46,691 nt of DNA from Candidatus Omnitrophota bacterium (GCA_026387595.1 JAPLLL010000127.1:1-46691), one strand, 5' to 3'; positions 23,469 to 26,690 are shown, counted from the first letter of the stretch. The notes: generated by a model from the sequence alone, not told the origin. Made by a program: numbers and translations.

Positions 23469-26400
23469 ATGAAAAATAGACCCGTAACCCTCATAGCGAT
23501 CTTGATGATCCTGGCCATGTCCCTCGGACCAGAGGCGTGGTCTTTGATTGGTCCTCGGGATGAATTTTCCAAATTCGCCCGCGAGAGAAAATTCTCGGGT
23601 ACTTTCGCGGGGGCCTCGGCCGGGCCTGCCCGACTCTGTGTGGCTAAATGGGCAGGCGGGCCGGATGAACTCAGGCCCTTAGCGGCAGGTGAAAGGGCTT
23701 CGGCTAGATTCGTAGCCGATGCACAGGCCGGGGATTATATCGTCCTCGGCAATGTCCCCCTTTACCTGGGCAAAAGCGAGAAAGGTGAATGGGCGATTAC
23801 AGATGCGTCGGGCCGCAGGTACGCCCTTAAGAGCGGCGTGATGAACACTGTAGGCCGTGGCCTTGAAACCAACGATGTAGCCCTGCCGGATACCCTCACC
23901 AATAAGGCGATCTCCCACCGGCATGCCGGTATCAGCATAGGTTACAACGCGGTAAAGATATACGACCTTGGATCCGCAAACGGCGTCGCAGTAAAAAGAA
24001 ATCCGTTAGACCCTGGTGATTTACCGATAGGAAAAGATAATATAAGCCGGGCGCTTGAGGACCGGTACCGCAGCGGGACAAGAGTTGTGTTAGCGGGAGA
24101 TTCCCACCCGTTTTTCAACATGTCCAAAAAGTGCGGCGAGCTGGCCGCGTCCCTGGGAGCTAGGAAGGCAATTACGCATCTGGGGCTGGAACTGCCGAAG
24201 GCATACCAGGAAGACCTGGATAAATTATTGCGGCATTGGCGGCTGCGGAATACGTGGAACAGGATAGACCTGGCTACCTACGCCGCCATATGCAGGTCTG
24301 ACGAAAAGATCGTCAGGTATATAACCCGGGCTTATGGCCCTTACCCCGCGGCATATTTCGGTATGCTTCAAGCTGCCTACGAAAACGGCGTCAAGGTGAC
24401 CGCTATCGACAACAGGATCACGGAAGAAGACCACGAAGGCCGCCAGAACGACGCCGGTATGCTTAAGAACATAGCCGAAGTGCTTAAACAGCCGGATGCG
24501 CGCATGCTGGTCTTTATAGGCGCGATGCACGCAAATAAAAACTCGGCGCCAGCCTATCCCGGTGACAGGCACCTCGGCGCCCTTCTTAAGGAAAAAATGC
24601 CCCAGGTAAAACCCTATTCGGTCTATCTCTGGGATAATGAGGCGGCAGAGGGTGATTTCCCGCTCCTGGGAAAAGGATTGGGAGCAAAGGGATTGCTGCA
24701 TTCGGATTTCCTGATGACGCTGAGCAACAGCACTGTTTTCGGGATGATGCCTGCCCGCCTTGGCAGGGGCCGTCTCGGAGACATGTATGATGCGGCCCTG
24801 CATGTCAGCGGGCCGTGGGTCTCATTCAAACCTGCGCAGGCCGGCGTAACGCTTTCCGAAAGGTTGGCGCGGCAGGACCTGAGGAATATTATTTCAGAAG
24901 AGGCAAGGGCGTTTTTATACAGGCAGATATCGCTTGATGTTAAAGATGTAGCGATCGGCTGCGAAAACGGAAAAGAGATATTTGGCAGGCTGCTTGGCGA
25001 GCACGAACCGGAATTGATAAATGCAGGTACCCAGACAGGCGGGCTGAGATCAAAGGTCGAAAAAATCCGCGTATATGACGGAGTCTATCTGTTGCTAAAC
25101 AGCTACGCCCAAGCTGGAAAACTAAATATTTTTGGCGCGGATCACGCTATTCTCAGCATAAACCCCGCAGGGTCTCACGTGATACTTGAGGCAGGCGGAA
25201 ATAAAATGGACCTGAGCGCATTCGAAGTTTTGGCCGCTCTCATGCTGCAACAGAAAGGCTCAGGCGGCATGGCGCATCTGGCAATGCCGTTCGCCTATAA
25301 TGCCAAAGATGAAGCGGGGAATGACTATACCGTGTCAGGGGCCGCGATCTTTATCTATTACGACGGTCATATCCTCAGGTATAATTACGGATTTGCGGCA
25401 GGCGCAAAGAAGTGGGTATTGGAGAAATTTATAGACGGCAAAAAATCATCGCTGTTGGTGAAAAACGAGAACGGCCTGAACTTTGAAAAACTGCGACAAA
25501 AGGGCCCGGAAAAGGCGATAGCGTATTTGGATGGCCTGATAAACCCGGTTGAAAAAACAGTCAGGGTGGCAGTGGGAATTAATTTTATCGGCGAAAAGCC
25601 GGCTATTTTTAATGCGGATAGCCCGACTATTCAGAATATCCTGGAAAACAGGCAAAAGATCGAAGAAGCGCTGCGTATAGTTTATAAAGACAGCACCATC
25701 TCATTGGATGGCGTAAAGAATACAGAGGTAAGCTGGTGCGGCCTGGGGAATACTAAAGCTGTATATCACATGCGTTTTTTTACTGCCGGCGGCAGAGCAT
25801 TAGACTTGGCGTTGTCGGTATTTAAGGACAAAGAACGGCGCGACGAGGAATTAAGTAACATAGGGATAATCCAAAATGAAATGGCAGCTACTCCCGGGGA
25901 GGATATCGTACTGATGAAGGGCAGCCCTGTGGACGCTGAAACGGTACGTGTTTCCCCGAGTGGATTGGAGCTTAAACAAACGTACTATTGCACCTTGTCG
26001 GAATATGGCGGAGTTGACATAAAGCGTCTTTCAAATATATTGATCCAATTATTCGCCGGTGAGAAATTGGGCGAAGGGAATCTGTATAATCTGGTAAAGA
26101 TAGGCCTTATTACCGAGGAAGAAAGTTCAACGCTTAAGGACGATGCAAATGGGCTCGCTCAAATCGTGAAGGCGCGCATTAACCGGAGCGATATCGACAA
26201 TCTTATTGTCGATATCGAAAAGATGGGCATCGCGAAATATTTTGAACTTTATAAGAGGACAGCCGGCCGGGCTGTTGCGCTGGATCCGAAGCGGGACAAC
26301 GTGCTGATCAGGTATGACAGAAGTAACAATAAATGGGGTGCCAGATTGATAGATTTTGAACGCATACGGTCTTGTTCCGTCGGCGAATATATAGCGAGTT

Positions 26401-26690
26401 TTGAAGTATTTGACAGGGCGTTTTATGAGGAGACTTCCCGAAACGGGCTCACGGTAATACCGGGCACTGTCAGGCGCTGGCACTGGACAGATAAACCCGG
26501 GAAAACAGGTTTTTTCGAAGCGGCTATGGAAGGCTTGGGCAGCGGCCGGGAAGCGAGGAATATGCTGAGGGCCGCCTGGCAAGAACTGACAGAAGATGCG
26601 GCTGCTTATGTCAGGCTTAAGCGCATTAATCCCGATGAATTAAAACGGATGCTGGATACGGTGTCAAAACTGTCTTTGGAACAGATATGA
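23469..26690 (+). CDS. 1073-aa exported multidomain protein: FHA + ChaN/Tiki-like + unassigned region + atypical protein-kinase-like domain (leader family member 2)
   Basis: Signal-like N-terminus, then GPDELRPLAAGER. Canonical FHA (TVGRG, ISHRHAGI, DLGSANGVAV; about 23820-24002). GDSH...LGLE...GAMH pattern (about 24075-24653). Kinase-like GLGNTKAVY, SVFK, LDPKRDNVLI (26280-26309) and IDFE (26349-26360). Confidence 0.6.
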   Translation: MKNRPVTLIAILMILAMSLGPEAWSLIGPRDEFSKFARERKFSGTFAGASAGPARLCVAKWAGGPDELRPLAAGERASARFVADAQAGDYIVLGNVPLYLGKSEKGEWAITDASGRRYALKSGVMNTVGRGLETNDVALPDTLTNKAISHRHAGISIGYNAVKIYDLGSANGVAVKRNPLDPGDLPIGKDNISRALEDRYRSGTRVVLAGDSHPFFNMSKKCGELAASLGARKAITHLGLELPKAYQEDLDKLLRHWRLRNTWNRIDLATYAAICRSDEKIVRYITRAYGPYPAAYFGMLQAAYENGVKVTAIDNRITEEDHEGRQNDAGMLKNIAEVLKQPDARMLVFIGAMHANKNSAPAYPGDRHLGALLKEKMPQVKPYSVYLWDNEAAEGDFPLLGKGLGAKGLLHSDFLMTLSNSTVFGMMPARLGRGRLGDMYDAALHVSGPWVSFKPAQAGVTLSERLARQDLRNIISEEARAFLYRQISLDVKDVAIGCENGKEIFGRLLGEHEPELINAGTQTGGLRSKVEKIRVYDGVYLLLNSYAQAGKLNIFGADHAILSINPAGSHVILEAGGNKMDLSAFEVLAALMLQQKGSGGMAHLAMPFAYNAKDEAGNDYTVSGAAIFIYYDGHILRYNYGFAAGAKKWVLEKFIDGKKSSLLVKNENGLNFEKLRQKGPEKAIAYLDGLINPVEKTVRVAVGINFIGEKPAIFNADSPTIQNILENRQKIEEALRIVYKDSTISLDGVKNTEVSWCGLGNTKAVYHMRFFTAGGRALDLALSVFKDKERRDEELSNIGIIQNEMAATPGEDIVLMKGSPVDAETVRVSPSGLELKQTYYCTLSEYGGVDIKRLSNILIQLFAGEKLGEGNLYNLVKIGLITEEESSTLKDDANGLAQIVKARINRSDIDNLIVDIEKMGIAKYFELYKRTAGRAVALDPKRDNVLIRYDRSNNKWGARLIDFERIRSCSVGEYIASFEVFDRAFYEETSRNGLTVIPGTVRRWHWTDKPGKTGFFEAAMEGLGSGREARNMLRAAWQELTEDAAAYVRLKRINPDELKRMLDTVSKLSLEQI

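Follow-up and report, generated by a model that had tools for sequence, protein, structure and literature searches.

The window analysed in this work is a stretch of 46,691 bp, which is the complete contig of the record that carries the protein MCX5716525.1 of a Candidatus Omnitrophota metagenome-assembled genome (MAG). The gene of this protein is located at 23469..26690 on the plus strand, as are the other window genes whose coordinates are given here. Its open reading frame (ORF) starts with ATG and encodes 1073 amino acids (aa), as given by the translation and the NCBI record. The initial annotation had placed the ORF at the same coordinates and had read an FHA domain, a ChaN/Tiki-like domain and a C-terminal kinase fold from the translation. 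All of the motif strings that it quoted were found at the exact residues. The order of the elements along the protein is strongly supported and consists of a signal peptide, a nine-residue LRPLAAGER tag, an FHA domain, a Tiki-superfamily hydrolase domain, an orphan region and a PKL domain. We hold this domain composition with high confidence.

To identify relatives of the protein, 1.84 billion representative proteins were queried exhaustively with aa 190-1073 in HMMER. The search returned no full-length homolog and no second example of the combination of FHA, Tiki and kinase-like domains, which bears out the initial annotation in calling the architecture unusual. The architecture is thus not a common one with an annotated function; the sole annotation of the protein in NCBI is 'FHA domain-containing protein'. 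The search returned only seven relatives of the C-terminal domain (P0002 to P0007 and P0012) and four relatives of the Tiki domain (P0008 to P0011). Word-indexed homolog searches, run with the full protein, with the alignment of the C-terminal family and with the C-terminal domain on its own, recovered nothing beyond the protein itself. Neither the gene nor its modules stand out in GC content, which gives no hint of recent transfer.

The signal-peptide-like N-terminus (aa 1-25; 23469..23543) was identified by a hydropathy scan and by inspection. The leader consists of basic residues K2 and R4, a 14-residue hydrophobic core from V6 to L19, a Gly-Pro pair (G20-P21) and the sequence A23-W-S25. 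It is the only transmembrane-like segment of the protein. Signal-peptide-like starts are also exhibited by the PKL homologs P0002 and P0003 and by the Tiki homologs P0008 and P0011. All relatives that bear the tag have basic n-regions. The protein is therefore likely to be exported via a Sec-type leader, as far as can be read from the translation. The signal peptide, the LRPLAAGER tag and the paralogous neighbouring gene described below together shift the likely biology of the protein from cytoplasmic signalling to export.

The FHA domain (aa ~86-190; 23724..24038) is securely predicted. The Pfam FHA model (PF00498) matches aa 127-185 with an E-value of 1.3e-6 and 29.1 bits, which is above the cutoff of 20.7 bits. 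The signature strings are TVGRG (127-131), ISHRH (148-152) and SANG (169-172). G129-R130, S149..H152 and N171-G172 are intact and make up the complete set of phosphothreonine-binding residues, as the initial annotation had read them (GR, S-x-x-H and N-G). The solved mycobacterial FHA domains match the domain weakly (E about 1e-3), and the NCBIfam OdhI/FhaB models also match weakly at the same place.

The Tiki/ChaN/EreA-superfamily hydrolase-like domain (aa ~201-391; 24069..24641) was assigned to the HopBA1/RRSP-like clade by profile comparison and by Foldseek. Its motifs are GDSH (210-213), LGLELP (238-243) and GAMH (351-354). The residues in place are G210-D211-S212-H213, E241, D314, D328 and G351..H354. 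The Pfam ChaN model (PF04187; cutoff 27.7 bits) is passed by P0008 (78 bits) and P0011 (28.5 bits). The HopBA1 model is touched by P0008 and P0009, and the erythromycin esterase model is touched by P0010. A profile of the domain and its four relatives (A3, five sequences) was searched against solved structures. The profile matches HopBA1 (5t09, E=5.5e-10), RRSP (6a8j and 5w6l, E=4.6e-6 and 5.2e-6) and EreC (E=0.086). The AlphaFold model of aa 190-700 has moderate confidence over the Tiki part only, where the predicted local distance difference test (pLDDT) is 60-89. The top Foldseek matches of the Tiki model are PMT (2ebf, E=4.8e-5), HopBA1 (E=6.8e-5, TMt 0.47) and RRSP (E=3.4e-4), and these are followed by ChaN (2g5g, E=2e-2) and EreC (6xcq).

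E241 and H354 are conserved in all five aligned sequences and H213 in four of the five. The residues that are essential in RRSP are E3900, H3902, E3930 and H4030, and the structural neighbours of RRSP in the Tiki superfamily have been reported to be PMT, HopBA1, Bcr135 and ChaN (PMC6254334). The four RRSP residues correspond by motif position to D211, H213, E241 and H354 here. The region is a Tiki-superfamily hydrolase-like module with a plausibly intact active site. It is strongly supported that the domain is nearest to the secreted toxin and effector domains HopBA1, RRSP and the C-region of PMT rather than to haem-binding ChaN. The superfamily assignment of the initial annotation thus stands by the profile search against solved structures and by Foldseek, while its affinity to haem-binding ChaN gives way to the toxin clade.

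The orphan middle region (aa ~392-687; 24642..25529) has neither a family nor a homolog. No Pfam match was found for this region even at E<=10, no homolog was found in the exhaustive search and no similarity to P0009 was found by BLASTP. The pLDDT of the region is below 50, and the AlphaFold model is unusable over aa 392-700. A motif-free stretch of about 270 residues had been noted before at residues 470-740. The stretch exists, but its boundaries are better placed at ~392-687.

The C-terminal domain (aa ~688-1050; 25530..26618) was assigned to the PKL fold by AlphaFold, by Foldseek and by its invariant residues. Its motifs are GLGNTK (758-763), SVFKD (783-787), DPKRDN (939-944) and IDFE (961-964). 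The domain carries G758-x-G760..K763, D939-P-K-R942-D-N944, D962-F-E, W1004-x-W1006 and K1012-x-G-F-F1016. The near relatives are P0002 (501 aa, 47% identity) and P0003 (454 aa, 36% identity), and the five distant relatives are P0004, P0005, P0006, P0007 and P0012. In the alignment of the domain with all seven relatives (A1, eight sequences), the invariant residues are D939, P940, R942, N944, D962, W1004, W1006, K1012, G1014, F1015 and F1016. D939, N944 and D962 are thus kept in 8/8 sequences. D939 and N944 are placed after a long helix and D962 is placed after a beta-hairpin.

The AlphaFold model built with A1 has a pLDDT of 73 (80-90 in the core) and a predicted TM-score (pTM) of 0.74. The model runs from beta1, beta2 and beta3 through a helix, beta4 and beta5, a helical lobe, the D939/N944 loop and a beta-hairpin to D962. 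This element order matches the order in kinases. Foldseek returned 89 matches in the PDB at E<=1e-3. The best 50 of the 89 are all protein or small-molecule kinases except for one chain of the SARS-CoV-2 RNA-dependent RNA polymerase, and AAK1, ULK1/2, JAK2-JH2, PknB, KIT, CDC7, amicoumacin kinase and choline kinase are among the matches listed. Foldseek also returned 33 matches in BFVD at E<=1e-3, which are giant-virus Ser/Thr kinases, UbiB and coronavirus ORF1ab. The NiRAN domain of coronavirus ORF1ab is kinase-like.

The sequence-based searches for relatives of this domain were largely negative. Neither phmmer nor the family profile matched the domain to kinases in the PDB. A match to APH 6fuc (E=0.06) was rejected as noise as the alignment is out of register. 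The Pfam search over all PKL members returned one weak match of one member to the ABC1 atypical kinases (E=0.07). The hhalign comparison of the family with a hand-typed APH(3')-IIa sequence was negative. A scan of GTDB genomes with a three-sequence C-terminal alignment returned 130 pattern matches and 0 relatives, and a scan of metagenomes only found the contig of P0003 again. The source MAG is apparently not among the species representatives of GTDB.

The region is very probably a new and sparse PKL-fold family with a conserved catalytic Asp/Asn/Asp triad, as judged from the predicted model. The kinase fold that had been read from the translation is upheld by AlphaFold, by Foldseek against the PDB and BFVD and by the invariant D-x4-N...D, but the lysine of the 'VFK' string (K786) is not conserved. 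In the alignment columns, the catalytic Asp and the metal-binding Asp are kept but the Lys-Glu pair is not. Both the kinase fold and the ChaN/Tiki fold of the initial annotation thus find support in profile or structure searches. Since the beta3 Lys and the alphaC Glu are unconserved, the kinase is an atypical one, and it may transfer phosphate in an unconventional way or not at all. K763 at the beta1-beta2 turn is K or R in 7/8 sequences, and a basic residue at this position might replace the missing beta3 lysine in the predicted fold.

Three of the distant PKL relatives are large proteins. P0004 (2514 aa) has many transmembrane segments and a methyltransferase domain, P0006 (1119 aa) has an M48 peptidase domain and HEAT repeats, and P0007 has 1007 aa. 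They resemble the multi-enzyme long proteins that have been reported for Omnitrophota. The contig of P0003 (L002) carries two prepilin-type (N_methyl) proteins, at 2057-2611 and 3798-4301, and a C1 peptidase near the kinase-like gene.

The LRPLAAGER tag (aa 68-76; 23670..23696) is conserved at the protein level. The tag is common to the 1073-aa protein and the products of both adjacent genes, and it follows the leader in all three. The copies of the adjacent genes are located at 22785-22808 (LRPLARAE) and 26873-26899. The consensus in the window genes is LRPLA(A/R)(G/A)E(R), and the wider form is (V/I/E)LRPLAAGE(R/K). In the contigs of homologs, the tag is located at 378, 1596 and 2820 (L001), at 605 (L002) and at 10148, 11330, 12743 and 14234 (L005). 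P0002 has two copies, behind the leader and near the C-terminus, and P0003 has one copy behind the leader. P0009, a protein of 1419 aa with a HopBA1-like Tiki domain, has four copies, near aa 51, 445, 916 and 1413, and the final one abuts the stop codon. The tag was also identified in the gene adjoining P0002, and it was not found in the more distant relatives of the protein. In proteins that are otherwise unrelated, the tag occurs behind signal peptides and between modules, and in one case at the extreme C-terminus. The leaders of the upstream gene and of P0016, which is a full-length variant of P0009, are alike (PY-V-I-ITIWSFL).

The synonymous codons differ between the copies of the tag, so conservation is exhibited at the protein level only and selection acts on the peptide. 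A repeat at the DNA level was ruled out as the cause of the tag by the same codon differences. The string RPLAAGE was not found in the searchable literature. A scan of GTDB genomes with back-translated LRPLAAGER returned, among the matches listed, chance matches with a GC content of 0.59-0.70, none of them in a leader context, and it is uninformative on the distribution of the tag. The tag is most simply read from its placement as a putative lineage-specific docking or sorting signal, or as a processing site that would mark module boundaries. The copy at the very end of P0009 speaks for docking rather than cleavage. The copies between modules, together with the co-occurring Tiki-type putative protease, leave room for MARTX-like autoprocessing.

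The two adjacent genes form a three-gene unit with the gene of the 1073-aa protein. The upstream gene (22668..23462; MCX5716524.1, 264 aa, termed ORF264) ends 6 nucleotides (nt) before the start of the gene, and the start of the downstream gene (26687..27592; MCX5716526.1, 301 aa, termed ORF301) overlaps its stop by 4 nt. Co-transcription with the genes of the two other tag-bearing exported proteins is part of the best-supported reading. The upstream gene is a paralog of aa 66-178, which covers the FHA region, with 36% identity (E=1e-14). Its product has a signal peptide with an A-S-A site. The phosphate-binding Arg of its FHA domain is replaced by Lys (G-K for G-R) and N-G is replaced by N-E, so the FHA domain is probably degenerate. 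The downstream gene encodes a signal peptide, the tag and a body with an 'LDLGAG' motif and a weak Methyltransf_23 match (E=0.086), which is a resemblance to class-I methyltransferases. ORF301 has no match in the PDB and NCBIfam. A relationship between ORF301 and the methyltransferase region of P0004 was rejected as its BLASTP match is not significant (E=0.037).

The remaining genes of the window are housekeeping genes. They consist of DUF4912, GH57 glycogen genes, Omp85, MnmG, a thymidylate-synthase-like gene, a LysM-amidase, GuaA, PurL/PurF-like genes, biotin genes and Mrp/complex-I-like subunits. The PADLOC defence models gave 0 matches in the window. The context of P0009, between thioredoxin/flavodoxin genes and chorismate and ATP-synthase genes, is unremarkable, and P0003 is located near pilin-like N_methyl genes.

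Several other features were observed in the window. An AT-rich intergenic region of ~940 nt (21731-22667, GC 0.41) lies 5' of the three-gene unit. Near-palindromic tggtgtcagacacc and aggtgcctgacacct hairpins lie within it around 22410-22448, and a site that resembles a promoter, with an extended -10, was noted at 22495-22522. A promoter and terminator scan gave site counts equal to the shuffled background. An ORF of 125 aa (27969-28346) combines a signal peptide (VSFA-A) with a glycine-zipper-like stretch and a tail rich in Q and A, which gives weak FliH and YiaD glycine-zipper matches (E about 6e-5 to 4e-3) that are far below the cutoffs. Two genes related to GMP synthase are located at 4029-4997 and 29963-31504. 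One is a full-length GuaA with the GATase domain and the synthase C-terminal domain, and the other (322 aa) has only NAD_synthase-like and GMP_synt_C parts. A protein of 252 aa (28447-29205) has a partial thymidylate synthase match (profile positions 107-221, E=3e-10) and may be a divergent ThyA-like enzyme.

Taken together, the gene may encode an effector-like enzyme of modular build that a predatory or parasitic Omnitrophota bacterium exports via Sec, and we give this reading a probability of about 0.5. After export, the FHA domain would dock the protein on a target that bears phosphothreonine. The Tiki domain would then hydrolyse a peptide or ester bond in the recruited target, and the PKL domain would transfer a phosphate or a nucleotide to it. 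The target would be a component of a host or prey cell, with several effector activities on one polypeptide as in the logic of MARTX toxins. Most Omnitrophota have been proposed to be predators or parasites (PMC10066038), and the long proteins of the phylum have been reported to be multi-enzyme fusions, 94% of which bear membrane-spanning helices or signal peptides (10.64898/2026.06.07.730766). FHA ligands and adenosine triphosphate (ATP) are not expected in the periplasm of the producer, and these points, together with the toxin-like Tiki domain and the lifestyle of the phylum, point to action in or on another cell. The effector role against another cell is nevertheless tentative, and we consider it somewhat less probable than the reading as a whole. 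It is the weakest step because no delivery system is visible. A still bolder version would take LRPLAAGE(R/K) as an undescribed sorting or processing signal that defines the exported modular effectors of an Omnitrophota lineage, the Tiki domain as cutting at the tags to set modules free in a MARTX-like manner and the PKL domain as the founder of a new family of exported kinase-fold enzymes acting on FHA-recruited phosphoproteins of prey or host. This version is a long shot.

Some observations weigh against the reading as an exported effector, including the missing sequence match of the PKL domain, the low TM-scores of its model and its unconserved beta3 Lys and alphaC Glu. The protein is a singleton, encoded on one contig of a MAG. 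The cleavage site of its signal peptide was judged by eye only, a Sec signal by itself does not deliver a protein into another cell, and no secretion system, immunity gene or mobile element was found nearby in the window. The ChaN model stays under its cutoff on the protein, with 19.2 bits for the whole protein and 24.5 bits (E=3.2e-5) for the segment. The first acidic catalytic residue of the Tiki domain is Asp211 and not Glu, and Asp is also found there in 4/5 homologs and in HopBA1. The protein could instead be directed at the cell that makes it, being exported to its own periplasm or surface and acting on its own envelope proteins or lipids. In that case the Tiki domain would serve as a protease or esterase for maturation, and the kinase-like domain either as a pseudokinase scaffold or as an enzyme with a donor other than ATP. 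The housekeeping context, with Omp85, the LysM-amidase and the glycine-zipper protein nearby, is consistent with such a role, as are the signal-peptide Tiki relatives outside a toxin context (P0008 and P0011). The unconserved Lys-Glu pair is compatible with a pseudokinase, and the fusion of the PKL relatives P0004 and P0006 to M48 peptidase, HEAT and methyltransferase domains and transmembrane helices resembles the membrane-associated multi-enzyme proteins of Omnitrophota. Catalysis is instead suggested by the invariance of the D-x4-N and D residues, the phosphothreonine ligands that FHA domains need are not expected in the periplasm, and among solved structures the Tiki domain has its closest relatives in toxin effector domains. 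A self-directed envelope role is rather unlikely, although it is the strongest of the alternatives.

The leader could also be an uncleaved anchor of a cytoplasmic Ser/Thr phospho-signalling protein, with the domains facing the cytoplasm as in bacterial modules of Ser/Thr protein kinases and FHA domains or in eukaryotic FHA-kinases. FHA domains and kinases normally act in compartments that contain ATP, and the pairing of FHA domains with kinases is classical. Basic residues are equally numerous directly behind the hydrophobic segment and in front of it, and the positive-inside rule therefore does not settle the orientation of this protein. Against an anchor stand the core of only ~14 residues that is followed by Gly-Pro and a small-x-small site, which is typical of a cleaved signal peptide, the canonical A-S-A site in ORF264 and the basic n-regions of all tag-bearing relatives, which speak for an N-terminus on the inside and an exported body. 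We regard the cytoplasmic placement as distinctly unlikely. Lastly, the kinase fold of the C-terminal module might be mistaken altogether, with a D-x4-N...D pattern that arose by coincidence and an AlphaFold model led astray by a shallow alignment. The alignment indeed has eight sequences, and the PKL domain has no sequence match in Pfam, NCBIfam or the PDB. No profile matches the family to any kinase family, and the hhalign comparison with the hand-typed APH(3')-IIa sequence was negative. The Foldseek TM-scores of the PKL model over the best 50 of the 89 PDB matches are low (0.22-0.34), with a root-mean-square deviation of 7-22 A. The beta3 Lys is not kept, as the K786 column reads K/R/K/L/-/R/R/Q and P0002 has Ser-Arg there, and the alphaC Glu is not kept, as the E793 and E794 columns are variable across A1. 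On the other side, the core pLDDT of 80-90 and the pTM of 0.74 are those given above, the significant matches in the PDB and BFVD are nearly all kinases with a probability of about 1, the invariant residues sit at the predicted catalytic loop and the DFG-equivalent, and one member has the weak ABC1 match. We regard a mistaken kinase fold as very improbable.

Omnitrophota are uncultured, mostly ultra-small bacteria and proposed predators or parasites, and the molecules that they use on other cells are almost uncharted. The locus provides a compact and clonable candidate of 1073 aa, which is far below the giant proteins of the phylum in size. The candidate joins a phosphopeptide reader to two enzyme modules, a relative of toxin proteases and an unclassified kinase-fold family. 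Should the tag turn out to be a signal for sorting or processing, it would be a simple sequence handle to catalogue the exported effectors of the lineage. If the kinase-like domain is active, it would be a new PKL branch without the canonical Lys-Glu pair.

The protein was compared with known systems. HopBA1, the type III effector of Pseudomonas syringae (5t09), is the best solved relative of the Tiki domain by both profile and fold. Both exhibit a 'GD-x-H' first motif and a terminal G-x-x-H. However, HopBA1 is a single-domain protein of ~240 aa with type III delivery, whereas the domain described here is a module behind a Sec leader together with FHA and kinase-like domains, and the identity is ~18%. 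RRSP, the Ras/Rap1-specific endopeptidase of the Vibrio MARTX toxin (5w6l and 6a8j), and the C-region of the Pasteurella multocida toxin PMT (2ebf) share the Tiki-fold catalytic core and the arrangement of several effector modules per polypeptide. Unlike RRSP, the protein has no match to the N-terminal lobe for membrane localisation and substrate recruitment that is required for RRSP activity, as the profile covers chain residues 290-418 only. It also has an FHA domain upstream of the Tiki domain, and the first Glu is replaced by Asp. RTX repeats and the autoprocessing cysteine protease domain of MARTX toxins were not found by Pfam and NCBIfam in the protein and its neighbours, so the likeness to MARTX toxins is in logic only. 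With the Tiki/ChaN/erythromycin-esterase superfamily the domain broadly has in common two GxxH motifs and an intervening conserved Glu, along with the weaker fold matches to ChaN (2g5g) and EreC (6xcq). In contrast to PF04187 members, the domain stays below the cutoff (24.5 against 27.7 bits) and is nearer to the toxin clade than to haem-binding ChaN.

The PKL superfamily, which includes the PknB-type Ser/Thr kinases and the UbiB/ABC1, choline and aminoglycoside kinases, shares the predicted bilobal fold, the D-x4-N loop and the metal-binding Asp after a beta-hairpin. The family described here differs in having no profile membership, no beta3 Lys and no alphaC Glu, and in having its own invariant W-x-W...K-x-G-F-F. 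The Rad53/Chk2-type FHA-kinase fusions are cytoplasmic or nuclear canonical kinases. They also have an FHA domain in cis with a kinase fold, but in the protein described here a hydrolase domain intervenes, the kinase-like domain is atypical and an export signal is present. The long multi-enzyme proteins of Omnitrophota (10.64898/2026.06.07.730766; 10.1101/2023.11.21.568195) come from the same phylum and tile unrelated enzyme domains with a signal peptide or transmembrane segments. Compared with them, the protein is small (1073 aa), its kinase-like family has no Pfam model and neither 'FHA' nor 'Tiki' occurs in the text of either preprint. The protein is not categorically new, since its superfamilies are known and multi-enzyme exported proteins are a habit of the phylum. 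What is new is the FHA/Tiki/PKL architecture that has no second example, the kinase-fold family that is unseen by current profile libraries and has no Lys-Glu pair, the occurrence of a HopBA1/RRSP-type domain in a lineage that is environmental and not pathogenic, and the LRPLAAGE tag.

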